From Kiloniellales bacterium (GTDB lineage Bacteria; Pseudomonadota; Alphaproteobacteria; Kiloniellales; JAKSDN01), in the NCBI GenBank assembly GCA_041617155.1, contig JBFJPL010000003.1, positions 19,189 to 83,188 on the forward strand: DNA of 64,000 nt, in the 5' to 3' direction. Shown piece after piece: positions 11,883 through 56,617 of the stretch. The notes below the pieces were generated by a model. It made no database searches and was not told where the DNA came from. It worked only from the letters and a program-made list of their open reading frames with translations. Positions within the stretch are counted from its first letter, which is position 1. Each line of letters begins with the position of its first letter. The translations under genes and the position numbers were made by a program.

Positions 11883-12296
11883 ATGAAGATCGATCCTCTT
11901 GCCAAACAGCGCCTGTCACCGACCCGGCGCAGCGAGCGCGCCAAGCAGCCGGAGGCGGGCGGTTTTGCCGAGGAACTGAGCGGCGAGGCCCCGGCCGGCG
12001 GCTCGGTCGGCGGCGCCACGGCGCCCAGTCCGGTCGACGGCCTGCTTGCCCTGCAGGAGGTGTCGGACGGCTTGGCGCGCCATGCCAAGGCGCGGCAGCG
12101 CGGCGAGGCCCTGCTCGAAGAGCTCGATAGACTGCGCCTGGATCTCCTGACCGGGACACTATCCAAGGCCCGGCTGGAGCATCTGGCGGCTTTGACGGCG
12201 GCGCAGCGGGAGCGGATCGATGATCCACACTTGGCGCAGATCATCGAGGAGATCGAGCTGCGGGCGGCGGTCGAACTGGCCAAACTCGACCACTAG
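11883..12296 (+). CDS. fliX: Class II flagellar assembly regulator FliX
   Basis: 137 aa. GLLALQEV...RQRGEALLEELDRLRLDLLTG...DPHLAQIIEEIELRAAVELAKL fits the FliX family pattern. It is divergent from the flgI-containing strand as in Caulobacter, with a perfect TTAA-N7-TTAA box 61 nt upstream. Confidence 0.7.
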   Translation: MKIDPLAKQRLSPTRRSERAKQPEAGGFAEELSGEAPAGGSVGGATAPSPVDGLLALQEVSDGLARHAKARQRGEALLEELDRLRLDLLTGTLSKARLEHLAALTAAQRERIDDPHLAQIIEEIELRAAVELAKLDH

Positions 12297-14678: not shown

Positions 14679-15464
14679 CTAGCGCAGCTGGGTCACGCTC
14701 GACATCATCTCGTCAGACGCCTGGATCACCTTGGAGTTCATCTCGTAGGCCCGCTGGGCGGTGATCAGGTTGGTGATCTCCGACACCACGTTGACGTTCG
14801 AGGCCTCCAGCGCGCCCTGCTCCATCGAGCCGAAGCCGGTCGAGGCCGGCGTACCGACGGTTGGCGTGCCGGATGCCGGAGTCTCCAGCAGCAGGTTGTC
14901 GCCGATCGGCTCCAGGCCCGCCTGATTGAGGAAGGTGGCCAGTTCGAGCTGGCCGACCTGCTGCGGCGCGACCTGGCCGGCGATGGTCACGAAGACCTGG
15001 CCGCTGGCGTTGATCGTCACCGTGCTGGCGTTGTTCGGAATGGTGATGCCGGGCTGCACGACAAGACCGTCGGGGGTGACCAGGTCGCCGTCCGCCGAGA
15101 GCTGGAATGCGCCGGCGCGGGTGTAGCCGGTCTCTCCGCTCGGCAGCTCGACCTGGAAATAGCCGCGGCCGCTGATCGCCAGGTCGAAGGGGTTGTCGGT
15201 GATGTTCATGCTGCCCTGTTCGGCGATCCGGTAGACCGCGGCCGGCTGCACGCCGAGCCCGAGCTGCACGCCGGCGGGCACGATGGTGCCGGCTTCCGAC
15301 GAGGTCGAGCCGACCCGCAGCTGGTTCTGGTACAGCAGATCCTGAAACTCCGCGCGGCGGCGCTTGAAGCCGGTCGTGTTCATGTTGGCGATGTTGTTCG
15401 AGATGACCTCGACGTTGAGCTGCTGAGCCAGCATGCCGGTCGCGGCGATATCGAGCGATTTCAT
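14679..15464 (-). CDS. flgG: Flagellar distal rod protein
   Basis: 261 aa. MKSLDIAATGMLAQQLNVEVISNNIANMNTTGFKRRRAEFQDLLYQ... and C-terminal ...LITAQRAYEMNSKVIQASDEMMSSVTQLR. Confidence 0.93.
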   Translation of the reverse strand: MKSLDIAATGMLAQQLNVEVISNNIANMNTTGFKRRRAEFQDLLYQNQLRVGSTSSEAGTIVPAGVQLGLGVQPAAVYRIAEQGSMNITDNPFDLAISGRGYFQVELPSGETGYTRAGAFQLSADGDLVTPDGLVVQPGITIPNNASTVTINASGQVFVTIAGQVAPQQVGQLELATFLNQAGLEPIGDNLLLETPASGTPTVGTPASTGFGSMEQGALEASNVNVVSEITNLITAQRAYEMNSKVIQASDEMMSSVTQLR

Positions 15465-15483: not shown

Positions 15484-16209
15484 CTAGCTTCTTGCGGTTG
15501 CCAGGGCGTCGATCGCCCGGCGTTGGCGTTCGTGTTCGTTGTTGGCCAGCTTGGCGGCCGCCTCGTAGCTGCGCACCGTGGCGACCAGCCTGGTCATCTC
15601 GACCACGCCGGCAACGTTGGAGCTCTCCAGCTTGCCTTGCTGGACGTCCGGCTGTTCGACCGGCAGGGCGGCCTGACCGGCGGCGTCATAGAGGCTGTTG
15701 GCCTGCCGCTTCAGTGCCTGCTGGTTATCGAAGCGGACCACCTGGACCCGGCCCAGCTCGCCCTGATCGGTCGAGATCGTGCCGTCACGCGCGACCGCGA
15801 CGGAAAGCGCGTCGACCGGGATGGTAATCGGCGCTCCGCCGTCGTCCAGCAGGGCAAAGCCCTGTGCGCTGACGATCCGGCCGTCGGGGTCGGGGGTGAA
15901 GCCGCCGGCGCGGGTATAGCGTGTGCCTTCCGGCGTCTCGATCGCGAAGTATCCCTCGCCGCGTATTGCCAAGTCGAAGGGGCTGCCGGTTTCGGTCATC
16001 GGCCCGGCCTTCAGGTCGCGGATCGTGGCGATGTCGCGAACGAAGCTGATCTTCTCGCGCGGCTCCGTGCGGGCGAGGTGCTCGACAAAGAGCATGCTCT
16101 CGCCCTTGAATCCGGGCGTGGTCAGGTTGGCCAGGTTGTTGGCCACCATGTCCATCTGGCGCCTGAGCACCATCTGACGCGAGAGTGCGATGTAGCCGGG
16201 ATTTTCCAC
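15484..16209 (-). CDS. flgF: Flagellar proximal rod protein
   Basis: (V)ENPGYIALSRQMVLRRQMDMVANNLANLTTPGFK... is the normal FlgF N-terminus and begins at GTG 16209. The track start 16290 lies upstream of the predicted sigma54 promoter (16268-16283). Confidence 0.85.
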   Translation of the reverse strand: MENPGYIALSRQMVLRRQMDMVANNLANLTTPGFKGESMLFVEHLARTEPREKISFVRDIATIRDLKAGPMTETGSPFDLAIRGEGYFAIETPEGTRYTRAGGFTPDPDGRIVSAQGFALLDDGGAPITIPVDALSVAVARDGTISTDQGELGRVQVVRFDNQQALKRQANSLYDAAGQAALPVEQPDVQQGKLESSNVAGVVEMTRLVATVRSYEAAAKLANNEHERQRRAIDALATARS

Positions 16210-16267
16210 CTGAGCGTCCGCTTCGCTGTGATCTTTCGCGCTGCCACCGGGCAGCACGGCACGGACT

Positions 16268-16283
16268 TGCAGTTTGCATGCCA
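16268..16283 (-). promoter_or_regulatory. sigma54-type -24/-12 promoter of the flgF-flgG-flgA-flgH operon
   Basis: The minus strand reads TGGCATGCAAACTGCA, with GG and GC correctly spaced and two flanking mismatches. It lies about 60 nt upstream of GTG 16209. Confidence 0.65.
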
Positions 16284-16300
16284 GCGGCAAGGGCTCGCAG

Positions 16301-16313
16301 AATCAAAGACTTA
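16301..16313. promoter_or_regulatory. Candidate IHF site between the enhancer dyads and the flgF sigma54 promoter
   Basis: AATCAAAGACTTA matches WATCAANNNNTTR exactly. It sits in an AT-rich spacer between 16283 and 16357. Confidence 0.45.
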
Positions 16314-20735: not shown

Positions 20736-23700
20736 TGGCTCGGCGGCAGGCAAAGATCGCCGCGCTTCTCGGCGGGTTTCTGGTCGCGGCGCTGCCGGTC
20801 CCGGCGGCCGTGGCCGAACCGCCGGACCAAACGGCGCCCGCGCTCAACCTGCGCAGCGGCGAACACGAAGGTTTCAGCCGCCTGGTGTTCGATTGGGATG
20901 CGCCGGTGACCTACAGCATCGAGGAGACGCCGAGCGGTGCCACGGTGTCTTTCGACCGGCCGGCCCGACTCGACCTGAAGAGCTACCGAAAAGATCCCTC
21001 GCCGGGCATTCTGGACCTCACCTTGGGCCCAGGCGACGACGGCCTCACGGTTGCCCTGCGGTTGCCCGAGGGCGCCAACCTGCGCCATTTTCTCAGCGGC
21101 CCCAAGGTGGTCATCGACGTGCTCGCCCCGGGCGCCGGCGCGGCCGAAGCGCAGGCCGATCAGGAAAGCGCCGCCGCCGGGGCGGCGCCCGAATCGCTCG
21201 GCAATTCCATCCTGAGCGATGCCGTGGAAGCCGCCGTGGCCCTGACCGGTGACACGCGGGCGAACCGCGCCGGCACCCGCCCGACCCGGCTCGGCGTTGC
21301 ACCCAAGGCCGCCGAACCGAAAGCGCCGCCGCGCCGCGCCGCGCCGCGTCCGGCGACCTCAAGCAAGGCATCGAGACGAAAACTGGTCGTCACCTACGAG
21401 CGGCCGCCCCTGCCGGCGGCAATGCCGGTGCCCGGTATGACGGCGCCGCGCTACCGCCCTCTGGCGATCCGCCTGAAGGGCATCGCCGGCGTAGCCGCCG
21501 CCGCCTTTCGCCGTGGCCAGCACCTATGGCTGGTGTTCGATTTGCCGGCCCGGGTCAACATCGCCAGGCAGATTCAGCGGATCGCGCCAGAACTGGCGCC
21601 GGTGTTGCAGCTCGAGCGACCAGACATCGTGGCCCTGCGCTTGACTGTGCCGCTGGGTGTGGCGCCGAAGCTGCGGCGCGACGGCACCGACTGGCTGGTC
21701 GACCTGCGGCCGCGCCTGATCCGGCCGGAAAAGCCGGCGACCCTCGACCTTCGCGCCGGCCATGACGGCCCTCGGCTTGTCTTTCCGGTTACCGGCGCGG
21801 GCCGGCTGATCCAGCTGGACGACCCGGATATGGGCGACCGGGTTCACGTGCTGCCGGTTTCGCTTGCCGATTTCGGCCTGGCAACGGCCCGCGATTTCCC
21901 ACAGTTCCAGGCGCTCGCCACCTATCAAGGACTGGCCATCGTGCCGCGGTCCGACAGGCTGTGGATCACGCTCGACAAGGACGCCTTGAAGATCACCTCG
22001 TCGGCCGGCCTTCTGGTCACCGCGGGATTGGACACCGACGCCGAGCCGAACGAGGAGGAGACGGTCGCGGGCAAGCGACGGCTGTTCGACCTGGCGGCCT
22101 GGCGCGAGGTCGACGGCGACGACTTCGAAACCAATCGAAAACTGCTGCAGCGCGCGATTATCGCGCCGGGCGACGCCCGGAGTCTCGATCTCGCGCGGCT
22201 CCGGCTGGCACGATTCTTTTTCGCCCATGGCTTGGCCACCGAGACCTTGTCGGTGATCAGGCTGATGGCGCGTGAGCGCGGGCGTTTCGCCGCCGATCCG
22301 GAGATGATCCTGCTCGAGGGCGCCGCTGCTTTCCTGGCGCAGGACTTTCACGCCGCAGCGGCCAGCCTTTCCCACCCGGCCCTGGAGGGCGAGGCCGAGG
22401 CCGTGATCTGGCGCGCCGCCATGTCGGCGGCGGCCCAGGACTGGCCCTATGCCGCGGAGCTGTTCGAGCAAGGCAAGGCGACGATCCAGGACTACCCGCG
22501 CGCGGTGCGCGTCCGGCTGCATCTCTTGGCGGCCGAGGCGCGCCTGGCGATCGGCGACACCGGCGGCGCCAGCTTCTACCTGAAACAGGCGCTTGAGGCT
22601 CAATCGACCGATTTCGAGCGGGCCCAGATCGATTTCCTCGAAGGCCGGCGCCTGCTGGCAGACCAGCGTCCGGAGCGCGCGCTGCCCCTGTGGCGGCGTG
22701 TCGCCGCCTCGACGCACCGGCCGTCCCAGGCAAGGGCGCGCCTGGCCCTGGTCAACCAAGGCCTGAAAGCGGGCACGCTCGAACCGGCCTCCGCGATCGC
22801 CGAACTGGAGCGTCTGCGCTTTGTCTGGCGGGGCGACGAGTTCGAGGCGGCGCTGCTTGAACGCCTGGGCCGGCTCTACGCCGACGCGGGCGACTACCGG
22901 GATGCCCTGGTCGCCCTGCGTCAGGCGGCTTCCCACTTCCCCGGTTCGGTCCGCGCCGAAGCGGCGGCGCGCCATATGCGCAAGCTCTTCGCCTCGCTTT
23001 ACCTGGGCGACAAGCGCGCGAGCCTGTCGCCGCTGGCGGCCTTGGCGCTATACCGCGAGTTCGAGGAACTGACGCCTGCCGCGCAGGACGGCAACCGCCT
23101 GATCGACAACCTGGTCGACCGGCTGGTCGAGATCGATCTTCTGGGCCAGGCGGCGGAACTGCTGGAAGACCAGATCGCCCGCCGCCTGGCCGGCGAAAAG
23201 CGGGCGCGGGCCGGCGCGCGTCTGGCGCTGGTCCGGCTGCTCGACCGCCAGCCTGGGCACGCGCTCGAGGCGCTGAACTCGAGCGCCGCCAAGAAACTGC
23301 CCAGCGCCGTCGAGCGCCGGCGCCGCCACCTCAGGGCGCGCGCGCTTGCCGGGCTGCACCGCGGGCGCGACGGGCTGGCCGTGCTGGCCGGCGACGAGAG
23401 CGAGGATGCACGCAAGCTGCGCGCGGAGATCCTGTGGCAGCTGCGCGACTGGCCGGCGGCGGCCGTCGCGCTGGCCCGGCTGATCCCGAGAGATCCGCCC
23501 AAGGAGCGAGCGCTCGATGCCGTCGAAACCCAGACCGTGATCGACCTGGCGACCGCCTATACCCTGGCAGGCGACCGCCGGGCGCTCGACGATCTGGCGC
23601 GGCGCTTCGGCAAGGCCATGGCCGAGAGCGGCAAGGCCGACAGCTTTACCCTGCTGACCAGCGACTTCGGCAAGGCCAACTTGGCCGCGGTGGCCGACGA

Positions 23701-23785
23701 GCTGGCCGGGGTCGAACGGATCCAAGCCTTCATCGCGAGCTATCGCGCGCGGGTCCGCAAGGACGGCCTCAGCAACCTGAACTAG
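20735..23785 (+). CDS. Large secreted AMIN-like plus TPR-repeat protein (flagellar cluster, unknown function)
   Basis: 1016 aa from ATG 20735, which overlaps the motB stop (TGATG). It has a signal peptide (AALLGGFLVAALPVPAAVA), an AMIN-like segment (LNLRSGEHEGFSRLVFDWDAPVTYSIEETPSGATVSFDRPARLDL...VVIDV), an Ala/Pro-rich linker, and a long C-terminal helical-repeat region rich in A/L/R. The track ORF start 20537 is an out-of-frame overlap with motB. Confidence 0.75.
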   Translation: MARRQAKIAALLGGFLVAALPVPAAVAEPPDQTAPALNLRSGEHEGFSRLVFDWDAPVTYSIEETPSGATVSFDRPARLDLKSYRKDPSPGILDLTLGPGDDGLTVALRLPEGANLRHFLSGPKVVIDVLAPGAGAAEAQADQESAAAGAAPESLGNSILSDAVEAAVALTGDTRANRAGTRPTRLGVAPKAAEPKAPPRRAAPRPATSSKASRRKLVVTYERPPLPAAMPVPGMTAPRYRPLAIRLKGIAGVAAAAFRRGQHLWLVFDLPARVNIARQIQRIAPELAPVLQLERPDIVALRLTVPLGVAPKLRRDGTDWLVDLRPRLIRPEKPATLDLRAGHDGPRLVFPVTGAGRLIQLDDPDMGDRVHVLPVSLADFGLATARDFPQFQALATYQGLAIVPRSDRLWITLDKDALKITSSAGLLVTAGLDTDAEPNEEETVAGKRRLFDLAAWREVDGDDFETNRKLLQRAIIAPGDARSLDLARLRLARFFFAHGLATETLSVIRLMARERGRFAADPEMILLEGAAAFLAQDFHAAAASLSHPALEGEAEAVIWRAAMSAAAQDWPYAAELFEQGKATIQDYPRAVRVRLHLLAAEARLAIGDTGGASFYLKQALEAQSTDFERAQIDFLEGRRLLADQRPERALPLWRRVAASTHRPSQARARLALVNQGLKAGTLEPASAIAELERLRFVWRGDEFEAALLERLGRLYADAGDYRDALVALRQAASHFPGSVRAEAAARHMRKLFASLYLGDKRASLSPLAALALYREFEELTPAAQDGNRLIDNLVDRLVEIDLLGQAAELLEDQIARRLAGEKRARAGARLALVRLLDRQPGHALEALNSSAAKKLPSAVERRRRHLRARALAGLHRGRDGLAVLAGDESEDARKLRAEILWQLRDWPAAAVALARLIPRDPPKERALDAVETQTVIDLATAYTLAGDRRALDDLARRFGKAMAESGKADSFTLLTSDFGKANLAAVADELAGVERIQAFIASYRARVRKDGLSNLN

Positions 23786-24865: not shown

Positions 24866-25141
24866 TCAGGGCTGATTCTCTGGCTGCCCGCCGGCCTGGT
24901 TCAGCAGTTCGAGGACGGCGGCGGCCAGGCGGTCGAGCGCGTCGCGCAGATCCCACAGCTTGGGCGCCAGTGCCACGGCCTGCTCCCGCGGCTGGTTTTC
25001 GAGGTTCGTGCAGATATCTCGGACCCGCTGGCCGAAGCCGGACAGCTCCACCAGGCGGCCGGCGCTGATCTCGGCGTGGGCCGCGGCAACCGCCTGGCCG
25101 AGCCGGTCGATCTCCGCCGCGATCGCGGTGGTGGGGGTCAC
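24866..25141 (-). CDS. Hypothetical small helical protein (flagellar export operon)
   Basis: 91 aa. The GTG start overlaps the stop of the upstream FlhB-C-like gene (GTGA). It sits 9 nt upstream of fliO. I recognise no family. Confidence 0.55.
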   Translation of the reverse strand: MTPTTAIAAEIDRLGQAVAAAHAEISAGRLVELSGFGQRVRDICTNLENQPREQAVALAPKLWDLRDALDRLAAAVLELLNQAGGQPENQP

Positions 25142-25479
25142 GGCGCGGCCTCGCCGGCGGCGGCCTGAGAGGCGCGATAGACGTAGGTCAGGATCTCGGC
25201 CACGGCGGCCAAGGCGGGCAGCGGCACTTCGCTGTCGATCTCCACCGCCGCCAGAATCTCCGCCAGATCGGCGTCGGTCCGCACCTTGACGCCCCGGTCG
25301 AAGGCGATCGCGAGTATCTGCTCGGCCAGGCGGCCTTGCCCCTTGGCGACGACGCGCGGCCCCTGGGCGGCGCCGGGGTCCTGCTGCAGGGCGATGGCCA
25401 GCGGACGGGGCCCGCCGGAATCTGGTGTCGAAGAGATCGGCTTGTCGGCCACGGCTGGCACCCGGTCCTCGGCTGTCAT
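25138..25479 (-). CDS. Stand-alone FlhB C-terminal-domain-like protein (EscU/YscU/FlhB-CC family, COG2257-like)
   Basis: 113 aa. PLAIALQQDPGAAQGPRVVAKGQGRLAEQILAIAFDRGVKVRTDADLAEILAAVEIDSEVPLPALAAVAEILTYVYRA aligns with the post-NPTH part of the bona fide FlhB in this window (HFAVALAYELGSAGAPKVTAKGADTLALRMRELAEEYAVPVVENPPLARALYGSVELDQEIPPEHYKAVAEIIGYVMRL). Confidence 0.8.
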   Translation of the reverse strand: MTAEDRVPAVADKPISSTPDSGGPRPLAIALQQDPGAAQGPRVVAKGQGRLAEQILAIAFDRGVKVRTDADLAEILAAVEIDSEVPLPALAAVAEILTYVYRASQAAAGEAAP

Positions 25480-25609: not shown

Positions 25610-25846
25610 TCAGTCGGTCGGTTTCTTGCCCTTCTCCTGCTCGGTCACCTGACCTGCCTGCTGGGTCGCGGCGGCCGCCCGGTTTTCGGCCTGTATGCGC
25701 TCGTGGATCTCGCGACGCAGCACGGTGGCGGTCGGCGGAAAGGTAAAGCCCAGTTTGATCGACTTGCCCCGAATGTCGATGACGGTGACTTCGATGTCGT
25801 CGTTTATGATGACTGACTCGCCGATCTTGCGTGTCAGATAGAGCAT
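25610..25846 (-). CDS. csrA: Carbon storage regulator / translational repressor CsrA homolog with a C-terminal extension
   Basis: 78 aa from ATG 25846. MLYLTRKIGESVIINDDIEVTVIDIRGKSIKLGFTFPPTATVLRREIHERI matches the CsrA fold sequence (MLILTRKxGESIxIGDDIxVTVLxIxGxQVRLGIxAP). The 22 upstream codons of the track ORF are not CsrA-like. Confidence 0.85.
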   Translation of the reverse strand: MLYLTRKIGESVIINDDIEVTVIDIRGKSIKLGFTFPPTATVLRREIHERIQAENRAAAATQQAGQVTEQEKGKKPTD

Positions 25847-25912
25847 GAGCTGCTTGCGCCTTTTCCAATTCGGCGGCGCCCCACGGCGCAACCCCCAGCA
25901 TTTATCATGCAA

Positions 25913-26019: not shown

Positions 26020-26430
26020 ATGGACGGCAAGCTGAACATCTTCGAAGCGATCGCCCGGCGCATGGTCTGGCTCGGCCAGCGGCAACAGGTCCTGGCCCAG
26101 AACATCGCCAATTCGGACACGCCCGACTACGTTCCGCAGGACCTCAAGCACGGTCCATTCCAGCGCGTGCTGGCGAAGAGCGTCGCGCTCGTGCGCCCGG
26201 CCGCGACCCACGCCAAACACATGGCGGGCCCGGCCGGCCTGGCCGCCCGCCCGGCCGAGAGCGCGGATCAGCGCGAGCGTTTCGAGACCGCGCCATCGGG
26301 CAACGCGGTGGTGCTCGACGAGCAGCTGATCAAGGTCGCCGAGACCCAGATGGACTATCAGACCATGACCAACCTGTACCGCAAGCACGCCCAGATGATC
26401 CGCGCGGCGCTCGGCCGCGGCGGCAACTAG
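26020..26430 (+). CDS. flgB: Flagellar proximal rod protein FlgB
   Basis: 136 aa. It carries RQQVLAQNIANSDTPDYVPQDL and C-terminal LDEQLIKVAETQMDYQTMTNLYRKHAQMIRAAL. Confidence 0.9.
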   Translation: MDGKLNIFEAIARRMVWLGQRQQVLAQNIANSDTPDYVPQDLKHGPFQRVLAKSVALVRPAATHAKHMAGPAGLAARPAESADQRERFETAPSGNAVVLDEQLIKVAETQMDYQTMTNLYRKHAQMIRAALGRGGN

Positions 26431-26457: not shown

Positions 26458-26868
26458 GTGTCGGATTTGGTCAAGGCGCTGAACATCTCGGCGGCCGGGC
26501 TCGAGGCCCAGGGCACGCGGCTTCGGGTGATCGCGGAAAACGTCGCCAACGCCGACTCGGCGGCGCAAAGCCCGGGTGCCGAGCCCTACCGCCGCAAGGT
26601 CGTCACCTTCAGCAACGCGCTCGACCGCGAGCTCGGGGTCGCGCGGGTCGAGGTCAAGGGCATCACCCTGGACCGCAGCGATTTCGGACGCCGTTTCGAG
26701 CCCGGCCACCCGGCGGCCGACCCGCAGGGCTACATCCGCACGCCGAACGTCAACAGCCTGCTCGAGGTGGCCGATATGCGCGAGGCGCAGCGCAGCTACG
26801 AGGCCAACCTCAAGGCGATCCAGTCGGCCCGCACCATGTTGCAACAGACCATCGACATTCTGCGCTGA
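26458..26868 (+). CDS. flgC: Flagellar proximal rod protein FlgC
   Basis: 136 aa with a GTG start preceded by AGGAGGAGG. It carries LRVIAENVANADS...PYRRKVVTF...PGHPAADPQGYIRTPNVNSLLEVADMREAQRSYEANL. Confidence 0.93.
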   Translation: MSDLVKALNISAAGLEAQGTRLRVIAENVANADSAAQSPGAEPYRRKVVTFSNALDRELGVARVEVKGITLDRSDFGRRFEPGHPAADPQGYIRTPNVNSLLEVADMREAQRSYEANLKAIQSARTMLQQTIDILR

Positions 26869-26956: not shown

Positions 26957-27268
26957 ATGACCGTCAATCTCGCCGATGCCGTATCCGCCTATCAGCGCCT
27001 GGTCCGAAGCGAGGCGGAGACCGGATTGGAGGCGCGCGACGGCGCGCGCGACGGCGATTTCGCCGGCGCCCTGCGCGCGGCCACCGAGACCGCCGTCGAG
27101 TCGCTGCGCACGGGCGAGACGGAATCGCTGAAGGCGGCCGCCGGAAAGGCCGACATCAACGAGGTGGTGCTGGCCGTCAGCCAGGCGGAGATCACACTGC
27201 AGACCGTGGTCGCGGTGCGCGATCGGGTGATCCAGGCCTATCAGGAGATCCTGCGCATGCCGATCTAG
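26957..27268 (+). CDS. fliE: Flagellar hook-basal body complex protein FliE
   Basis: 103 aa. DINEVVLAVSQAEITLQTVVAVRDRVIQAYQEILRMPI is the FliE C-terminus. Confidence 0.9.
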   Translation: MTVNLADAVSAYQRLVRSEAETGLEARDGARDGDFAGALRAATETAVESLRTGETESLKAAAGKADINEVVLAVSQAEITLQTVVAVRDRVIQAYQEILRMPI

Positions 27269-44600: not shown

Positions 44601-45590
44601 TTACGAAAGCTGGCCCATTTTTTCGAGCAGCCGCTTATGGACATCGAGTTCCGACATTATGAAGTCTTTCAGCATCGCCCGCTTGAGCCAATGTCGGGCG
44701 AGCGACTTCTTCTTCGCATAGCTCCGCCATTCGTCGGTCTTCTCGACTTTCGTGAACAGTTTTTCGTAGAACACCAGGGCCTTCCGCGGCACGTTGAGCG
44801 GCGCCATGACGCCGCGCTGCATGTGGTAGACCAGGTCGTGTCCGAGTTCCCTGAAGGTCGGCACGTCGGGGAACATTTCCAGCCGGACCGGCGTGAAGGC
44901 GGCGATTGGCCGGGACTTGCCTTCCTGATAGAAATCCATCTGTTCGGAGGGGTTGTTGACCGTCGAGTCGATGTCCTTGGCGATCAGCGCCTTCGCCACC
45001 GCGCCGCCGCCCTTGTAGGGCTTGTAGGCGTGTTTGATGCCATAGGCCTTCTCGAGCATCGCCGTGACCAGGGAGTCCTCCTGGCCGCTACCGGTGCCGC
45101 CCATGGTCCAGCCGCCGAGCCCGGCCGTTTTGACCGCTTCCACGTAGTCCTTGATGTTCCTGATATCCGACTCCGCGTTGACCCAAAGCAGGAAGCTGTC
45201 GATCGCCAGGGTCACGACAGGCGTGAACTCGCGAATGTCGAGACTGAGCGCCGGCGTGCGCAGCGGCGTCGTATAGAGGCTGTTCAGGGTGGCCATGATC
45301 ACGTTGGAGTTGCCGGCGTGCTGCTTGAGGTACAGCATGGCTTCCGCGCCGGATTGGCCGCCCTTGTTGATCGGCAGGAAGGCTTGATCGCTGAACTTGT
45401 ACTTCTCGATGATCTTGATGATGTAGCGTGCCAAGCGGTCCGCACCACCGCCTTCTCCGGCCATGATCACGAACTCGATCGGCCGATTGGGGCTCCAGTT
45501 GGCTGCTGCCTCGCCGGGGCCCAGCAGGGTGCTGGTTCCAAGGCCCGTGATAAGCCCCAGGCTAAACTCTCTCCGGTCAATTTTTCTCAT
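44601..45590 (-). CDS. Tripartite tricarboxylate transporter substrate-binding protein (TctC/Bug family), orphan
   Basis: About 329 aa from ATG 45590, with GGAG upstream and a Tat-like MRKIDRREFSLGL. FVIMAGEGGGADRLARYII...INKGGQSGAEAM...YKPYKGGGAVAKAL fits the Bug/TctC pattern. No tctA or tctB is adjacent. Confidence 0.75.
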   Translation of the reverse strand: MRKIDRREFSLGLITGLGTSTLLGPGEAAANWSPNRPIEFVIMAGEGGGADRLARYIIKIIEKYKFSDQAFLPINKGGQSGAEAMLYLKQHAGNSNVIMATLNSLYTTPLRTPALSLDIREFTPVVTLAIDSFLLWVNAESDIRNIKDYVEAVKTAGLGGWTMGGTGSGQEDSLVTAMLEKAYGIKHAYKPYKGGGAVAKALIAKDIDSTVNNPSEQMDFYQEGKSRPIAAFTPVRLEMFPDVPTFRELGHDLVYHMQRGVMAPLNVPRKALVFYEKLFTKVEKTDEWRSYAKKKSLARHWLKRAMLKDFIMSELDVHKRLLEKMGQLS

Positions 45591-45767
45591 CGCTCCGCCC
45601 GCCATGTTCGAAGTCAGGGTGTAAAACTCCAAGGCTTCTTGATTTGCAGTAGTTCTAGGCGTTAATTTATTAATGATCGGTTATTTATTTAACAATAATA
45701 ATTTGATGCTTTCAAGGTTTATTTATTTATTTCAAATATATTGGCTAATTATTAAAGGTAACATACT

Positions 45768-46352
45768 CTAAACTCGCGGACTGACTCCTTGGATATTCGG
45801 TTCGGGTGCGGCGTCCAGTGCGCCGAAGATTTCGTCGATCCGATTGACCACCTGGAACAGGTGGAGCTGGTCGCCGCGCACGTAGCCCGCTTCGGCCTGG
45901 TGCCGGATCAAGTCCAGCAAGGAGTCCCAGTAGCCGGCGATATTGACCAGGACTACCGGCTTGTCGTGCAGGCCAAGCTGCTTCCAGGTGATGATCTCGA
46001 AGGTCTCGTCCAGTGTGCCCAAGCCGCCGGGCAGGACGCAAAAGGCATCGGACACCTCGCACATGCGCTGCTTTCGGCTGTGCATGGAGTCGACCACCTG
46101 AAGGTCGCCGATGCCCGTGTGCCCGACCTCGCGGGCCTGCAGGTGTTCGGGTATGATTCCGGTAACTTGGCCGCCAGCTGCCAAGGCGGCGTCGGCCAGC
46201 ACGCCCATCAGGCCGACACGACCGCCGCCGAATACGATACGGACCTGGCGCTCGGCGGCCAGTCTGCCCAGTTCGGCGGCCGCTTCGACGTGGCTGCCGT
46301 CGACCTGATCGGAGGCGCCGCAATAGACGCAGAGCGAACTTACATTTGCCAT
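45768..46352 (-). CDS. LOG-family protein (TIGR00730; cytokinin riboside 5'-monophosphate phosphoribohydrolase-like)
   Basis: 194 aa from ATG 46352. It carries LCVYCGAS...IVFGGGRVGLMGVLADAAL...PGGLGTLDETFEIITWKQLGLHDKPVVLVN. Confidence 0.88.
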   Translation of the reverse strand: MANVSSLCVYCGASDQVDGSHVEAAAELGRLAAERQVRIVFGGGRVGLMGVLADAALAAGGQVTGIIPEHLQAREVGHTGIGDLQVVDSMHSRKQRMCEVSDAFCVLPGGLGTLDETFEIITWKQLGLHDKPVVLVNIAGYWDSLLDLIRHQAEAGYVRGDQLHLFQVVNRIDEIFGALDAAPEPNIQGVSPRV

Positions 46353-46540
46353 GGCTCCAAGTCTCCCTACTTGTAAAGCTGCATCATCGCGTAGACTTTG
46401 AACAATGCCCGATAAGGCTCCTACCGCAAGTTGCCTTTCAGGAAAAGTACCGGGCGGCGGTTCGGAAAAGGACGCGATCATTGCGCGACCTCGGTGGCCG
46501 TACTAGGGTGAGGCCGCGCGCGACGATTGGAGTCGGTTCA

Positions 46541-49228: not shown

Positions 49229-52200
49229 CTATTCCGCCGCCTTCGGCACCTGCTCGAGGTCGACCGCGGCGGGCGGCCCCGCGGCCGGCCGCGGCCGCCG
49301 CTTCTTGCGCCACCAATCAGCCAGGTTGGCGCGCAGCATGAGTGCCGACGGCGTCACCACCAGTGTCAGCACGGTCGCGAAGGTCAGGCCGAACACGATC
49401 GCGGTCGACAGCTGGCGCCACCACTGGGTCGAGGGCGCGCCCAGCTGCACGGTCCGGGTCAGGAAGTCGATGTTCATGGCCAGCACCATGGGCATCAGCC
49501 CGAGGATCGTCGTCACCGTGGTCAACAGCACCGGGCGCAGGCGCTGGGCGCCGGTGCGCAGAATCGCCTCGCGCACGTTCGGCGTGGTTTGCTTCAGGCG
49601 GTCGAAGGTATCGATCAGCACGATGTTGTTGTTGACCACGATGCCGGCCAGCGCGATGACGCCGATGCCCGACATGACGATACCGAAGGGCTGGCCGGTG
49701 ACCAGCAGTCCGATCATGACGCCGATGGTCGACATAATGACCGCCGAGAGGATCAGGAAGGCGCTGTAGAAGCTGTTGAACTGGGTCACCAGAATGATCG
49801 CCATGAGGAACAGGGCGACGATGAAGGCCTTGATCAGGAAAGCCTGCGCCTCCTGCTGTTCCTCGTCCTCGCCTTTGAAAGTGACGGTGACCCGAGGATC
49901 GAGCGCGGCGGTGGCCAGCCAGCGACGGATCTCGCCGACCTTGTCGTCGACCAGGAGACCGGGTGCGACATCGGCCTTCACGGTCATGACGCGGCTGCCG
50001 TCGATGCGGTTCAGCAGCCCGACCTTGGGCCGCGCCTTGCGCTCGACGAAGTTCGCGATCGGGATCAGCCCGGCGCCGGTCTGGACCCGTATCTCGTCCA
50101 GGTGGTCGATGCTGCGGTTCGCCTCGGGCAGGCGCACCACGATGTCGATCTCCTCGTCGCTATCGTCCGGCCGGTACTCGCCCAGCTTCATGCCGTTGGT
50201 GATCATGCGCACGTAGCTGCCGATCAGCGACACGTCGGCGCCGAACTTGGCCGCCTGGGAACGGTCGACGCTGAGCTCCCACTCGATGCCGGGGATCGGC
50301 CGGCTGTCCTCCAGGTCGACGAAACCGCCGATCCGCTTCATGGCCTCGACCACCTGTGCCACGGTCGGTTCGATCGCCGCCGGGTCGGCGGAGGCGATCT
50401 GGACCTGGACCGGCTTGCCGACCGGCGGGCCGGCTTCCTCCTTGCGCGGCTCGACGGCGATGCCGGCCAGATCGGCGGTGCGGGCGCGCACCTCGGCCAG
50501 GATCTCGTTGGCCGGCCGGCGCAGGTGCCAGTCCGTGAACTCGATTTGTATGGTGCCGATCAGGTCCTGCGGCTCGTTGTCGCGTTGGGTGCCCGACGAG
50601 GCGACGCTGCGCGCGTAGATCGCGTGGAATTCGGCCTTTTCGCGCTGCATCTGGAGGATCCGGTCCTCGACCTGACGCAGCAGGTGGTCGCGCTCGTCGA
50701 TCGACAGGTTGCCGCGCCCGTGAACCTGAAGGGCGGCGTTGTCGGGCTCCACGTCGGGGAAGAACTCGACCCCCCGGCCGAAGGTGGCATAGGCGAACTG
50801 TACGCCGACCAGCACCACCAGGGCCGCCAGCAGCACCTTGGCCGGGTGTTTCAAGGCCGCCTGGAGCAGTCTTATGTAGCGTCCGGTAAAGCCCGGCACC
50901 CTGGTGAGGTCGCCGGACTCCCCGGCGGCCAGCACCTTGGCGGTCTCGCCTTTGGCGGCACCGCCCGCCCGGCCGAAGATCGAGCCCAATGTCGGCACGA
51001 AGACCAGCGCCATCAGCAGCGAGGCCGACAGCGTCGCGACCAGGGTAATCGGCAGGTATTTCATGAATTCGCCGACCGTGCCGGGCCAGAAGATCAGCGG
51101 CAGGAAGGCGGCCAGGGTGGTCGCGGTCGCCGCGGCGATCGGCCATGCCATGCGCTTGGCCGCCAGGGTGTAGGACTCCTTCTTGTCCAGGCCCTCGCTC
51201 ATCTTCCGGTCGGCGTATTCGGTCACCACGATGGCGCCGTCGACCAGCATGCCGACCGCGAGGATCAGGCTGAACAGCACCACGATGTTGACTGTGAAGC
51301 CGACCACCGCCAGCACCAGAATGCCGGTCAGAAAAGAGCCCGGGATGGCAATGCCGACCATGCTGGCTGAACGCAGGCCGAGCGCGGCGACCACCACGAT
51401 CATCACCAGCAGGATCGCGCTCAGCACGTTGTTCTGCAAGTCGCTCAACATGTTGCGGATGTCGGAAGACTTGTCCTGGCTGTAGGTCACGATCACATCG
51501 GCCGGCCAATTGCGGCGCTCGGCCTCGACCGCGGTGCGGACCTGCTCGATGGTCGCGATGATGTTCTCGCCGGTGCGCTTGGAAACCTCGAGCGCGATCG
51601 CCGGGCTGCCGTTGATGCGGGCGAAACCTTGGGAATCCTTGAAGGTGCGGCGCAGCACGCCGATGTCGCGAAAGCGCACGGCGGCGTCGCCGAAAACCTT
51701 CACCGGCATGTCGAGAATGTCGTCGGCGGTCTCGAACAGGCCCGGCACCTTGATGGCGAAACGGCCCTGGCCGGTGTCCAGCGAACCGGCCGCGACCAGC
51801 CGGTTGGAGCGGTTGACCGTATCTATGATGTCGCGGGCGTTCAAGTTGTAGCTTTCCAGGATCAAAGGATCGACCACCAGTTCGACCAGCTCCTCGCGGT
51901 CGCCGCCGATCTCGGCCTTGAGCACGCTGGAGATGCCTTCGATCCGGTCCTGCAGGTCGCGGGCCAGGCGCAGAAGCGTGCGCTCCGGCACGTCGCCCGA
52001 TAGGGTCACCACCAGCACCGGGAAGAGGCTCAGGTTGATCTCGTGGACCGTCGGCTCGTCGCTGTCCTCCGGCAGTTCCGGCTTGGCCAGGTCGACCTTC
52101 TCGCGAACATCGGCCATGGCGATGTCGACGTCGAACCCGGCGTCGAACTCGAGCACCACGTTGGCGCCGCCGAGGAAGGCGGTCGAGCGCATCTCCTTGG

Positions 52201-52432
52201 CGCCCTCGATGTCGCGCAGCTGTTTTTCCAGCGGCTTGATCAAGAGACGCTCGGCGTCTTCCGGCGAAATGCCCTCGTGGTTGGCGTTGACGTAGAGTAT
52301 CGGAATGTTGATGTCCGGTTCGGCCTCCTTGGGCACGGCGACATAGGCATAGGTGCCGGCGATCAGCACCAGCACCAGCGTGGCCAGGACCGTACGCGAA
52401 TGGCCGATGGCGGCTTCGATCAGGCTGTTCAA
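49229..52432 (-). CDS. RND efflux transporter permease (AcrB/HAE family)
   Basis: 1067 aa with the 12-TM RND pattern (MNSLIEAAIGHSRTVLATLVLVLIAG...; two large loops). It overlaps the MFP gene by 4 nt. Confidence 0.92.
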   Translation of the reverse strand: MNSLIEAAIGHSRTVLATLVLVLIAGTYAYVAVPKEAEPDINIPILYVNANHEGISPEDAERLLIKPLEKQLRDIEGAKEMRSTAFLGGANVVLEFDAGFDVDIAMADVREKVDLAKPELPEDSDEPTVHEINLSLFPVLVVTLSGDVPERTLLRLARDLQDRIEGISSVLKAEIGGDREELVELVVDPLILESYNLNARDIIDTVNRSNRLVAAGSLDTGQGRFAIKVPGLFETADDILDMPVKVFGDAAVRFRDIGVLRRTFKDSQGFARINGSPAIALEVSKRTGENIIATIEQVRTAVEAERRNWPADVIVTYSQDKSSDIRNMLSDLQNNVLSAILLVMIVVVAALGLRSASMVGIAIPGSFLTGILVLAVVGFTVNIVVLFSLILAVGMLVDGAIVVTEYADRKMSEGLDKKESYTLAAKRMAWPIAAATATTLAAFLPLIFWPGTVGEFMKYLPITLVATLSASLLMALVFVPTLGSIFGRAGGAAKGETAKVLAAGESGDLTRVPGFTGRYIRLLQAALKHPAKVLLAALVVLVGVQFAYATFGRGVEFFPDVEPDNAALQVHGRGNLSIDERDHLLRQVEDRILQMQREKAEFHAIYARSVASSGTQRDNEPQDLIGTIQIEFTDWHLRRPANEILAEVRARTADLAGIAVEPRKEEAGPPVGKPVQVQIASADPAAIEPTVAQVVEAMKRIGGFVDLEDSRPIPGIEWELSVDRSQAAKFGADVSLIGSYVRMITNGMKLGEYRPDDSDEEIDIVVRLPEANRSIDHLDEIRVQTGAGLIPIANFVERKARPKVGLLNRIDGSRVMTVKADVAPGLLVDDKVGEIRRWLATAALDPRVTVTFKGEDEEQQEAQAFLIKAFIVALFLMAIILVTQFNSFYSAFLILSAVIMSTIGVMIGLLVTGQPFGIVMSGIGVIALAGIVVNNNIVLIDTFDRLKQTTPNVREAILRTGAQRLRPVLLTTVTTILGLMPMVLAMNIDFLTRTVQLGAPSTQWWRQLSTAIVFGLTFATVLTLVVTPSALMLRANLADWWRKKRRPRPAAGPPAAVDLEQVPKAAE

Positions 52433-53612: not shown

Positions 53613-54170
53613 TTATTCGGCCACCAGGGCCGGTGGCGGGTCGGCCAGGGGATGGGCGGCGTCGGCCGCCACCAGGTCGCGGTTCTGCCGCAGATAGTCG
53701 GCGGCGGCGCGATAGAGCGCCAGGCCGAAGCCGTGGACCAGTTGCTGACCGGCCGAGCGGTCGTCCGGGGCGCAGGCCTCCATGCGGGCGATCTGCGCCT
53801 CGTAGTAGGCGATCCGCTGGTCGATCACGGCCGCCACGTGGCTTGCCGGCAGCATGTGGCTCAGGAACAGCACGAACAGAAAATCCGAGCGGAACTTGTC
53901 GGGCGGCGGCGGTTCCATCAGGGCGGCGGTCAAGGCCTGCCAACCGGACTCGGTGATCGCGTAGACCTTTTTGTCCGGCCGCTTTTGCTGGGCCATCTCG
54001 GTGCCGTGGACCAGCCCTTCCTCGGTCAGCTTGGTGAGCGCCGGATAGATCGACCCGAAGCCGGTGTCCTGGAACTGGCCGAGCGGCGGCTCTTCCAGGG
54101 CTTTCTTAATCTCGTAGCCACTGGCGTCGCCTCGGCTCAGCACCGCCAGGCAAAGTGATTTGGCATCCAT
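53613..54170 (-). CDS. PadR-family transcriptional regulator
   Basis: 185 aa. LAVLSRGDASGYEIKKALEE...GSIYPALTKLTEEGLV...KKVYAITESG is the PadR wHTH. It lies upstream of the MFP-RND genes on the same strand. Confidence 0.88.
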   Translation of the reverse strand: MDAKSLCLAVLSRGDASGYEIKKALEEPPLGQFQDTGFGSIYPALTKLTEEGLVHGTEMAQQKRPDKKVYAITESGWQALTAALMEPPPPDKFRSDFLFVLFLSHMLPASHVAAVIDQRIAYYEAQIARMEACAPDDRSAGQQLVHGFGLALYRAAADYLRQNRDLVAADAAHPLADPPPALVAE

Positions 54171-54372
54171 GGTGCGCCTCTTCCCCCGATAATGGCCTTA
54201 TATATCGGAACGAAATAACACGGTCCAATATATTTTTTTTCGGTATATCAATATGCGCGTAAAAATCCTGGAGACCTCGCGGCAATACCCTAAAAATTAC
54301 ATAAAAATCATACATTTGCCGATCTAGCTTCTACATAGTAGTATTAAAAGACGATATATTTCGGGGACCGCC

Positions 54373-54771
54373 ATGAATTTGCTGTCCAACGCGACCCTCT
54401 CCAGCCTGGCGGCGCAAAGCCATAGCCTGGCTGTTTCGGCGAGCAATATCGCGAACGTGCGCAGCCTGGGTCTGCCGCTAGACGGTAGTCAGCCGAGCGG
54501 GGGAGAGTACGTGCCCCAGCGTGCGGTGCAGACCTCCGGGCCGGACGGTATCGTACGCAGCCAGGCGGTACCGATCGAACCACCCTCGGTTCCAGCTTTC
54601 GACCCGAATGACCCCCGGGCCGACGCGAACGGATTGGTGCCGATCGCCAACGTGTCGCTGGAACAGGAATTCGTCGTCCAGATCCAGGCCAAGCTCGCCT
54701 ACAAGGCCAATCTGGCGGCCTTGCAGACCCAAAACGAGATCCTGGGCGAGTTGCTCGACGTGGTGTCCTGA
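54373..54771 (+). CDS. Orphan FlgC-like flagellar rod-family protein
   Basis: 132 aa, colinear with FlgC of this window: SNIANVRS (vs ENVANADS), YVPQRAVQT (vs YRRKVVTF), FDPNDPRADANGLVPIANVSLEQEFVVQIQAKLAYKANL (vs [39 protein letters not shown]). It lies 22 kb away from the flagellar island. Confidence 0.7.
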   Translation: MNLLSNATLSSLAAQSHSLAVSASNIANVRSLGLPLDGSQPSGGEYVPQRAVQTSGPDGIVRSQAVPIEPPSVPAFDPNDPRADANGLVPIANVSLEQEFVVQIQAKLAYKANLAALQTQNEILGELLDVVS

Positions 54772-54854
54772 GCGCAGCCTGGACGCGGGCCTGCGTTGGC
54801 CGGCTCTTAGTTTAACCTTGTCCCCGCGTCACCGGCGCGCTACATATGTCCCTG

Positions 54855-54971
54855 ATGAGCACGACGCGCAAAGAGATGATCCAGCATCAAAGTGCCCTGC
54901 CGGACGCTGGGGTTGTTCGTGCGCCGCTGCTCCCCCTCCTTCCCGAGATCCTCCTTCTTAGCTGCCCCTGA
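54855..54971 (+). promoter_or_regulatory. Candidate Leu-rich leader peptide ORF upstream of leuA
   Basis: A 38-codon ORF encodes MSTTRKEMIQHQSALPDAGVVRAPLLPLLPEILLLSCP*, with an in-frame alternative ATG at 54846. Seven Leu occur in the last 14 codons, including three CTT. It ends 90 nt before the leuA ATG. No convincing SD is present. Confidence 0.35.
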
Positions 54972-55060
54972 GCGCTACAGCCGCGTTGTGGCGGCAAGCG
55001 AGCAGGGGGACATGACCGGCCCAACGCTAAGTAACTGAGGGAACGAGGAAATTTTCAGTC

Positions 55061-56617
55061 ATGAGTAGTACCAAGAAGGGCGCCGAGCGCGTCATCGTCT
55101 TCGACACCACCCTGCGCGACGGCGAACAGTCGCCGGGTTGCTCGATGAACCTGGAGGAGAAGGTCCAGGTCGCCGACATGCTCGAGCGCATGGGCGTGGA
55201 TGTCATCGAAGCCGGCTTCCCGATCGCCTCGCGCGGCGACTTCGAGGCGGTCAGCAAGATCGCCAGCCGGGTCAAGGACAGCGCCGTGGCCGGATTGGCC
55301 AGGGCCAGCGCAAAGGACATCGACCGGGCCGGAGAGGCGCTCAAGCATGCCGAGCGGCCGCGCATCCACACTTTCATCTCCACCAGCCCGCTGCATATGA
55401 AGCACAAGCTGCAGATGGAGCCCGAGGCGGTGCACCAGGCGGTGATCGACAGCGTCACCCGGGCCCGCAACCTGTGCGACGACGTGGAGTGGTCGCCCGA
55501 GGACGGCACCCGCACCGAGCACGACTTCCTCTGCCGTTGCGTCGAGTCGGCGATCAAGGCGGGCGCGCGCACGGTCAACATCCCGGACACCGTGGGCTAC
55601 ACCGTGCCCGAGGAGTTCCACGACCTGATCGCCATGCTGAAGAACCGGGTGCCCAACATCGACCAGGCGGTGATCTCGGTCCACTGCCACAACGATCTGG
55701 GCTTGGCGGTCGCCAACTCCCTGGCCGCGATCCAGGCCGGCGCCCGGCAGGTCGAATGCACGATCAACGGCATCGGCGAACGGGCCGGCAACGCCTCGAT
55801 GGAGGAGATCGTCATGGCGCTGCGCACGCGCCGCGACTTCATGCCTTTCGAGACCGGCGTCGACACCACGATGATCACCAAGGCCTCGCGCCTGCTTTCG
55901 GCGGTCACCGGCTTTTCGGTCCAGCCGAACAAGGCCATCGTCGGCGCCAACGCCTTCGCCCACGAGGCCGGCATCCATCAGGACGGCATGCTGAAGAACG
56001 CCGAGACCTACGAGATCATGACGCCGGAGTCGGTCGGCCTGACCCGCTCGACCCTGGTCATGGGCAAGCATTCGGGGCGCCACGCCTTCAAGACCAAGCT
56101 CGAGGAGCTGGGCTTCAAGCTGAGCGACAACGAGCTGAACGACGCCTTCGAGCGCTTCAAGGACTTGGCGGACAACAAGAAAGACGTGTTCGACGAAGAC
56201 CTGATCGCCCTGGTCGACGATGCCGTGGTGCGCCACAACGACCGCATCAAGTTCGTTTCCCTGCAGGTGGTATGCGGCTCGAAGGGGCCGCAGACGGCCG
56301 AGCTAGAGCTCGAGTTCGACGGCAAGGTCAAGTGCGAGAAGGCCAACGGCAACGGTCCGGTCGACGCGCTGTTCGCGGCGATCAGCAAGATCTGTCCGCA
56401 CGAGGGCAAACTGCAGCTCTATCAGGTCCATGCCGTGACCGGCGGGACCGACGCCCAGGCCGAAGTGACGGTACGACTTGAAGAGAACGGCAAAACCGTC
56501 AACGGCCAGGGCGCCGACTATGATACCCTGGTGGCGTCCGCCCGGGCCTATGTGAATGCTTTGAACAAACTACTGGTGAAACGAGAAAAGACCGCGCCGG
56601 CGGCGCTTTCGGCCTGA
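55061..56617 (+). CDS. leuA: 2-isopropylmalate synthase
   Basis: 518 aa. It carries VIVFDTTLRDGEQSPGCSMNLEEKVQVADMLERMGVDVIEAGFPIAS...HCHNDLGLAVANSLAA. Confidence 0.96.
   Translation: MSSTKKGAERVIVFDTTLRDGEQSPGCSMNLEEKVQVADMLERMGVDVIEAGFPIASRGDFEAVSKIASRVKDSAVAGLARASAKDIDRAGEALKHAERPRIHTFISTSPLHMKHKLQMEPEAVHQAVIDSVTRARNLCDDVEWSPEDGTRTEHDFLCRCVESAIKAGARTVNIPDTVGYTVPEEFHDLIAMLKNRVPNIDQAVISVHCHNDLGLAVANSLAAIQAGARQVECTINGIGERAGNASMEEIVMALRTRRDFMPFETGVDTTMITKASRLLSAVTGFSVQPNKAIVGANAFAHEAGIHQDGMLKNAETYEIMTPESVGLTRSTLVMGKHSGRHAFKTKLEELGFKLSDNELNDAFERFKDLADNKKDVFDEDLIALVDDAVVRHNDRIKFVSLQVVCGSKGPQTAELELEFDGKVKCEKANGNGPVDALFAAISKICPHEGKLQLYQVHAVTGGTDAQAEVTVRLEENGKTVNGQGADYDTLVASARAYVNALNKLLVKREKTAPAALSA

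Follow-up and report, generated by a model that had tools for sequence, protein, structure and literature searches.

A solitary FlgC-like gene outside the flagellar island of a Kiloniellales bacterium belongs to a distinct clade of stand-alone rod-protein relatives

The window, that is, the whole stretch of DNA analysed here, comprises 64,000 nt of contig JBFJPL010000003.1 from a Kiloniellales bacterium. At 54373-54771, on the plus strand, it carries a gene for a 132-residue protein resembling FlgC of the flagellar rod, hereafter the orphan gene. The orphan faces away from an efflux operon composed of padR, a membrane fusion protein (MFP) gene and a resistance-nodulation-division (RND) pump gene, and the two units share a spacer of 202 nt. 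This divergent layout, already given in the preliminary description of the locus, is borne out by the coordinates and strands of the open reading frames (ORFs) and by the PF03551 match of PadR. The segment 54373-54771 is a functional, selectively maintained gene with a FlgC-fold product. Together with other stand-alone FlgC-like genes it forms a distinct clade, present in many Alphaproteobacteria and in one metagenome-assembled genome (MAG) of the Pseudobdellovibrionaceae. The locus is laid out as follows.

49229-52432, minus strand: RND pump gene, from the Pfam annotation of the syntenic genes at loci L001 and L004
52429-53535, minus strand: MFP gene, from the Pfam annotation of the same syntenic loci
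53613-54170, minus strand: padR, 185 residues, first gene of the padR-MFP-RND operon (PF03551, 58 bits)
54171-54372: divergent spacer, 202 nt, GC content 40.1% (window 66.2%), from the sequence
54373-54771, plus strand: flgC-like orphan gene, 132 residues, from Pfam and NCBIfam matches, the family profile, AlphaFold2, Foldseek and hhalign

The orphan protein consists of several parts: an N-terminal helix (residues 2-27, with SASNIANVRS), a variable loop (about 28-48), a β-hairpin core (49-92) that carries the motif PxxPxAD..G.V..(P/A)NV, and a C-terminal helix (96-131, with AYKANL). Its alignment with FlgC is colinear from end to end, at the characteristic length of about 135 residues. The NCBIfam model of FlgC, TIGR01395, matches at 57.1 bits (E=2.2e-15), pairing residues 9-130 with positions 8-135 of 137, and Pfam PF06429 (Flg_bbr_C) matches residues 91-129 at 25.6 bits, above its gathering threshold of 23. 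For PF00460 (Flg_bb_rod) no match is listed for the orphan at E<=1; its SASNIAN aligns with the canonical ENIAN, and precomputed PF00460 matches are present on many members of the clade. A profile of the clade, built from 147 relatives, reaches Salmonella FlgC (7bin_V) at E=2.8e-29, with profile positions 3-127 aligned to FlgC residues 5-129. When compared by hhalign with a profile of canonical alphaproteobacterial FlgC, it aligns over 128 columns with 99.7% probability.

The AlphaFold2 model, computed with the family alignment as input, has a predicted local distance difference test score of 95.4 and a predicted template-modelling (TM) score of 0.84, and shows helix 2-27, four strands and helix 96-131. 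In a Foldseek search of the PDB, the top ten hits of this model are the FlgC chains of solved Salmonella and Vibrio rods (TM 0.76-0.82, E 1e-9 to 2e-7), with FlgB, FlgF, FlgG and FlgE far below. These results predict, at high confidence, that the orphan adopts the FlgC fold, in which the N- and C-terminal helices pair as a coiled coil beside a small β domain. The initial claim of a 132-residue protein colinear with FlgC is upheld by Pfam, TIGR01395, the family profile, hhalign and AlphaFold2 with Foldseek; the profile searches, on which that claim had been staked, back FlgC homology.

The codon positions of the orphan ORF have GC fractions of 0.66, 0.44 and 0.80 (GC3 0.80), like the surrounding genes of the window. 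In six relatives the reading frame is intact, and changes of length are in-frame and limited to the loop after the first helix. Pairwise ratios of nonsynonymous to synonymous substitution (dN/dS) between the orphan and these relatives range from 0.11 to 0.65 and lie mostly at 0.1-0.4, with similar values for padR. The loop itself (window residues about 32-44) is highly variable. Comparison of the loci L004:8001-8363, L031:4001-4363, L009:10001-10447 and L006:1424-1927 reveals a 12-residue deletion in two Rhodospirillales relatives, an expansion rich in Ser, Gly and Thr in Bradyrhizobium and, in an alphaproteobacterial MAG, an insert of about 36 residues rich in Pro.

The flagellar rod is usually described with five protein species, FliE, FlgB, FlgC, FlgF and FlgG. 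All five are encoded in the flagellar island of the window, together with the export apparatus:

14679-15464, minus strand: flgG
15484-16290, minus strand: flgF
26020-26430: flgB
26458-26868, plus strand: canonical flgC, 142.1 bits against TIGR01395, in the operon flgB-flgC-fliE-fliQ-fliR-flhB, its product 28% identical to the orphan
26957-27268: fliE
Following fliE: fliQ, fliR and flhB, then the cell-cycle kinase gene cckA (end 32050)
Also in the window: flgA, flgH, flgI, flgJ-like, flgK, flgL, fliX, fliL, fliM, fliO, fliP and two flagellin genes

Between cckA and the orphan lie recA, alaS, a peptide ABC transporter, a cyclophilin-type peptidyl-prolyl isomerase gene, icd, tctC, a LOG-like gene, psd and pssA; downstream of the orphan lie leuA and mreBCD-pbp2-rodA. 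This gene content confirms the reported distance of about 22 kb from the island. The contiguous 64-kb window holds no second flagellar cluster, which answers the earlier concern that such a cluster had been split by the assembly. Since the canonical rod set is present and about 22 kb of housekeeping genes intervene, the orphan is an extra, sixth rod-family gene rather than a fragment of a second cluster.

Among 1.84 billion cluster representatives, searched exhaustively, 649 proteins are related to the orphan at E<=1e-3, and 171 of these reach E<=1e-10. Nearly all matches in the clade are 120-145 residues long and align end to end; one candidate, P0021 (2736 residues, 26 matched stretches), was dropped as a tandem-repeat artefact. 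Close relatives are scarce, at 17 clusters among 5.8 billion. The named carriers, whose proteins have about 130 residues, are Rhodospirillales MAGs, Azospirillum soli, Rhodoplanes, Tardiphaga, many Bradyrhizobium (the Bradyrhizobiaceae at family level), Hyphomonadaceae and one Pseudobdellovibrionaceae MAG. Across many orders the gene is kept as a single-copy, solitary gene, and a tblastn search (E<=1e-6) finds no relatives on plasmids; on viral contigs there are likewise none.

Several comparisons separate this clade from canonical FlgC. TIGR01395 is the best family for all 147 sampled members; the top value is E=2.5e-26 and none of the 147 reaches 1e-27, so no member passes the equivalog cutoff of this model. 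Every member compared (146/146) scores higher against the orphan than against the window's canonical FlgC, a preference seen in none of 120 canonical FlgCs. The clade hidden Markov model gives 160.7 bits to the orphan, 105 to Salmonella FlgC and 73-98 to canonical alphaproteobacterial FlgCs. In a neighbour-joining tree rooted on FlgB, the orphan clade is monophyletic (69% bootstrap) with the window protein inside it, and it lies outside a canonical clade in which Salmonella FlgC groups with the alphaproteobacterial FlgCs (77% bootstrap). The clade may accordingly be an old paralog or a fast-evolving offshoot of FlgC, as the scores and the tree suggest. A FlgC paralog encoded alone, as first described, is present; it is not an isolated case but a member of a widespread monophyletic clade. 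Databases already hold these sequences under the names FlgC or ‘flagellar basal body rod C-terminal domain-containing protein’, and what is new is the recognition of the solitary genes as a clade. Our literature search, whose coverage is incomplete, found no paper on solitary FlgC paralogs.

Compared with canonical FlgC (Salmonella 7CG0, 7BIN and 8WLH; Vibrio 8Z5S; TIGR01395), the orphan has nearly the same length (132 versus 134-137 residues), is fully colinear, and shares the (A/S)xNIAN helix, the P..P.AD..G.V..PNV hairpin region and the C-terminal Y..AN helix; its predicted fold superposes at the TM scores given above. The proteins differ in that the orphan is only 28-34% identical, falls in the separate clade and is encoded outside a flgBC-fliE operon. 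Residues found without exception across the sampled alphaproteobacterial FlgC set A4 (PYRRK..) are also missing from the orphan, which has Y.P..V.Q and QAK.AYKAN in their place. The window's own canonical FlgC comes from the same genome and family, and both proteins have the FlgC model as their best match; the canonical gene differs in its operon position and its score of 142 bits. Additional FlgC-type genes (flgC2) are recorded for the lateral or fla2 flagella of Bradyrhizobium diazoefficiens, Rhodobacter sphaeroides and Vibrio (PMC6406911; PMC6201568; PMC6180460), and the Bradyrhizobium lateral flgC sits inside a complete 35-kb cluster (PMC6406911). These genes resemble the orphan in that each is an additional FlgC-type gene in a genome already holding one. 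They differ in lying inside complete second flagellar clusters, whereas the orphan clade is solitary, in Bradyrhizobium as well. All mentions of flgC2 in the searched literature refer to second flagellar systems and none to a solitary paralog.

The divergent spacer contains the features below. Conservation refers throughout to an alignment of seven spacers, from the window and six relatives.

54199-54250: conserved block 1, consensus TATATATCGnnnCGAnATAnnTCGATCCAATATATTnTTTTTCGATATA
54201-54217: 17-bp palindrome TATATCG-GAA-CGAAATA, putative PadR operator, overlapping the -10 hexamer and spacer of the candidate padR promoter
54228-54223 and 54204-54199, minus strand: candidate padR promoter, -35 TTGGAC and -10 TATATA separated by 18 nt, both hexamers in block 1
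54233-54240: T8 run
54241-54247: CGGTATA (consensus CGATATA), inverted-repeat partner of TATATCG at 54201-54207, at the distal edge of block 1
54293-54321, plus strand: conserved block 2, an A/T-rich tract with AATCATACATTTGCCG (AAAATTnnATAAAAATCAAACATTTGCC)
54339-54344, plus strand: candidate -10 TAGTAT of the orphan gene, 17 nt after TTGCCG
54363-54367: GGGGA, Shine-Dalgarno-like, upstream of the orphan ATG

Block 2 occupies a fixed position, -64 to -70 from the ATG of the flgC-like gene. It could be either an UP-like element with a -35 hexamer TTGCCG (54316-54321) or an IHF-type site. The IHF consensus WATCAANNNNTTR is exact in the block 2 of 4 of 7 relatives and has one mismatch in the window. 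A pattern TTGCNN-N17/18-TAnnnT, ending 25-31 nt before the ATG, is found in six of the seven spacers by automated search (in L004 by eye). Two other assignments were rejected by eye: TTGC is not the -12 element of a sigma-54 promoter, because the -24 position reads AA and not GG, and a sigma-28-like GCCGAT is not conserved in the relatives. By eye, too, no CtrA box (TTAA-N7-TTAA) is present upstream of the orphan and no EcfG-type GGAAC-N16-CGTT in the upstream regions of Bradyrhizobium. A consensus scan assigns neither a sigma-70 promoter nor a terminator to the orphan gene, and Rfam gives no structured RNA in 53900-55200 at E<=1. Elsewhere in the window, the single exact match to the IHF consensus WATCAANNNNTTR lies at 16301-16313, in the divergent spacer of flgF and fliL; it would fit FlbD/sigma-54-type flagellar promoters, because fliX is present (11883-12296).

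For the role of the orphan protein, the reading we favour, by a modest degree, is that of an accessory or alternative proximal-rod subunit of the FlgC type, exported by the flagellar type III system. The protein retains both terminal helices, of the kind that builds the D0 coiled coil in axial proteins, as well as the motifs P..P.AD..G.V..PNV of the central hairpin. The N-terminus (MNLLSNATLSSLAAQSHS...) shows by eye no positively charged n-region and no long hydrophobic stretch, hence no Sec signal. Because the axial helices and motifs are kept and no Sec signal is apparent, the protein would most likely be exported by the type III apparatus of the island (FlhB, FliPQR). Once exported, it would be incorporated in the proximal rod as a FlgC-type subunit, either accessory or alternative. 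The gene would be transcribed alone from the conserved block, with its A/T-rich tract or IHF-like core and TTGCCG-N17-TAGTAT. The preliminary description had offered a spare or alternative rod subunit, a regulator of rod assembly and a domesticated axial-family protein; a structural role is the best supported of these.

A number of points weigh against a role in the rod. Export and rod incorporation are argued from the retained fold and motifs alone. The score of 57.1 bits misses the TIGR01395 equivalog cutoff of 102.1 bits. FlgC genes typically stand in a flagellar operon (flgB-flgC-fliE), and the immediate neighbours of the orphan are padR and leuA; because both the cutoff and the operon context fail, the gene is filed as a FlgC-like paralog and not as FlgC. 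Only 15 clusters are at least 62% identical to the orphan, while the canonical copy has 120 listed relatives, none of them below 66% identity; judged by these sequence comparisons, the orphan evolves faster than canonical FlgC. The tree, with its thin sampling of canonical FlgC and moderate bootstraps, is taken as moderate evidence. The candidate promoter hexamers match 8 of 12 consensus positions, under the threshold of the scan, and no copy of the block-2 core occurs at <=3 mismatches elsewhere in the window, including the promoter regions of the island; the promoter looks housekeeping-like rather than flagellar. Finally, the gene is solitary and without a conserved neighbour in 11 of 11 lineages, never in a flagellar operon, as the following neighbourhoods illustrate.

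Window group: padR and leuA
L005: transposase genes and a gene for a ferredoxin-domain protein (PF00111 Fer2)
L006: no rod-type ORF among the called neighbours, family searches not having been applied to this locus
Azospirillum: a patatin gene
Rhodoplanes: HdeA and DUF502 genes
Bradyrhizobium: between the genes for a 2-hydroxyacid dehydrogenase and an ornithine cyclodeaminase
Hyphomonadaceae: Ada or a Na/H exchanger, plus Band_7
L035: a peptidase M48 gene
L037 and L038: ilvBHC
L039 (GCA_053527515.1): acetyltransferase gene and cobS

Two neighbourhoods have further features. In three lineages, which include the Pseudobdellovibrionaceae MAG, a protein of 152-196 residues is encoded divergently across a spacer of 50-200 nt (L035:6204-6794, L037:6474-6950 and L038:6491-6949, all on the minus strand). 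These partner proteins have a signal-peptide-like N-terminus by eye and are 26-38% identical to one another; they have no Pfam match and are absent from the window and from the other loci examined. The encoded protein may be a periplasmic partner. At L039, about 5-6.5 kb separate the FlgC-like gene (L039:968-1378) from cheY-cheZ and a MgtE_N/DUF6468/fliM cluster (L039:6300-9378), and four unrelated genes (acetyltransferase, cobS, dnaJ and porin) lie in between. This is the only linkage to flagellar genes, a loose one, among the 11 lineages.

These observations give some room to a rod-derived protein that is non-structural or non-flagellar, expressed independently of the flagellar hierarchy and, for example, either tuning rod assembly as an export-coupled checkpoint or competitor, or serving as a domesticated axial fold in another envelope structure. 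The location outside flagellar operons in every lineage, the separate and faster-diverging clade, and a conserved promoter block of its own that does not recur at the island promoters would all fit such a protein, as would the pairing, in three lineages, with a conserved signal-peptide protein instead of flagellar genes. We nevertheless consider it rather unlikely: the full FlgC architecture and the axial-assembly motifs are kept in a model of very high confidence, there is no new domain and no Sec signal by eye, and one lineage, L039, retains its loose link to fliM. To our knowledge, moreover, every named carrier taxon belongs to a flagellated group.

A broader proposal is put forward tentatively, as a possibility well short of even. 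The clade might represent an unrecognised sixth class of axial protein, or a rod-derived protein in a new role, with its own promoter of non-flagellar type and doing something that canonical FlgC does not. Under this proposal the protein could form an additional layer of the rod or an adaptor, be a rod isoform used under particular conditions, or act as a checkpoint in assembly, and in some lineages it might cooperate with the conserved periplasmic partner.

Coupling of the orphan to the efflux operon is improbable. It would require PadR, bound to the shared spacer, to co-regulate both units, so that the FlgC-like protein is made under efflux-inducing conditions. Close relatives, down to 63% protein identity, share the divergent layout and the spacer palindromes, and a further TATATCG, on the minus strand at 54352-54358, adjoins the ribosome-binding site of the flgC-like gene; both points speak for such coupling. 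Six relatives (63-90% protein identity) indeed show padR-MFP-RND, the flgC-like gene on the opposite strand, and then leuA and/or mreB. One close relative (L029:1326-2924) lacks leuA and has mreB directly after the FlgC-like gene, so the downstream neighbour varies even within the padR-linked group. The padR adjacency, however, is restricted to close relatives (at least 62% identity) and absent from all more distant members; because these stand beside unrelated genes, the association is lineage-specific, and the juxtaposition looks like a coincidental accident of gene order within one lineage.

The spacer itself points the same way. The preliminary description had noted an AT-rich spacer of 202 bp with a T8 run and three repeat-bearing elements, and all of these are found where it placed them. 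Its picture of repeated ATATC/GATAT elements survives only in location: the spacer holds 3 such pentamers against a mean of 1.5 in dinucleotide shuffles, which is not above chance because 19% of the shuffles reach 3, and only part of the pattern is conserved. Neither the CCGATA arm (54186-54191) nor the element at 54351-54364, near the orphan start, is conserved even in a 90%-identical relative. The palindrome at 54201-54217, by contrast with these, is present in all seven spacers when one-base variants of either arm are counted, and is unique in the 64-kb window, with 0.03 matches expected by chance. CGGTATA/CGATATA is recognisable in 6/7 spacers and has diverged in L034. A third TATATCG, at 63222, lies in coding-like sequence and was set aside as unrelated.

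The conserved palindromes lie over the candidate padR promoter (54199-54250) and about 70-115 bp upstream of the promoter block and -35 hexamer of the orphan, whose own block spans 54293-54344, a placement at odds with membership of the orphan in a PadR regulon. Block 1, whose minus-strand hexamers are suitably spaced from the start of padR, reads as a padR promoter with an overlapping operator, although a strict consensus scan does not call this promoter, and the padR-proximal palindromes are a probable operator for autoregulation of padR-MFP-RND. Autoregulated efflux regulators of the PadR family are known, for example LmrR-LmrCD. The window resembles such systems in that padR heads an efflux operon and a conserved palindrome overlaps its candidate promoter. 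It differs in the palindrome, TATATCG-N3-CGAnATA, since the type known for characterised PadR proteins is ATGT-N8-ACAT; the putative operator concerns the neighbouring operon and not the orphan. The tie to PadR and efflux that the preliminary description implied is accordingly not sustained.

Least probable of all is that the gene is the decaying relic of a second flagellar system since lost, or a recently duplicated copy on its way to loss: solitude, faster divergence than the canonical copy and a score under the FlgC equivalog cutoff speak for this reading, but it is largely refuted by the dN/dS values, mostly 0.1-0.4 and indicative of purifying selection, and by the tree, in which the clade is monophyletic and outside both alpha- and gammaproteobacterial canonical FlgC, and it also conflicts with the intact frame, the in-frame length changes confined to a variable loop, the conserved promoter block and the retention of a single-copy solitary gene in many orders.

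A conserved, extra FlgC-type protein is thus kept outside flagellar operons in many Alphaproteobacteria, including the tractable Bradyrhizobium diazoefficiens and Azospirillum. Assembly of this protein into the motor would mean a rod of richer composition in these bacteria than in the Salmonella model; failing that, the protein would exemplify the reuse of an axial protein for another purpose. Pipelines that label genes of this clade FlgC can mislead counts of flagellar systems and phylogenies based on orthologs. The PadR part is of lesser weight and concerns a plausible autoregulatory operator beside an unrelated gene.

Some further features of the window accompany the island. A stand-alone protein with the FlhB C-terminal domain (113 residues; TIGR00789, PF01312) is encoded beside full-length flhB, and csrA lies just upstream of flgB; the two ORFs are at 25138-25479 and 25610-25912, on the minus strand. 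An ORF of about 1000 residues (20738-23785, plus strand), between a motB-like gene and fliP, has no NCBIfam or Pfam match above gathering thresholds, and the same holds for an ORF of 277 residues (4918-5751, minus strand) beside flgL and the flagellin genes (2748-3569 and 3842-4663). The most AT-rich spot of the window is a segment of about 130 nt at 45640-45770, located between a TctC-family receptor gene (44601-45632, minus strand) and a LOG/lysine-decarboxylase-like gene (45768-46481, minus strand); measured over 100 nt, its GC content drops as low as about 18%.

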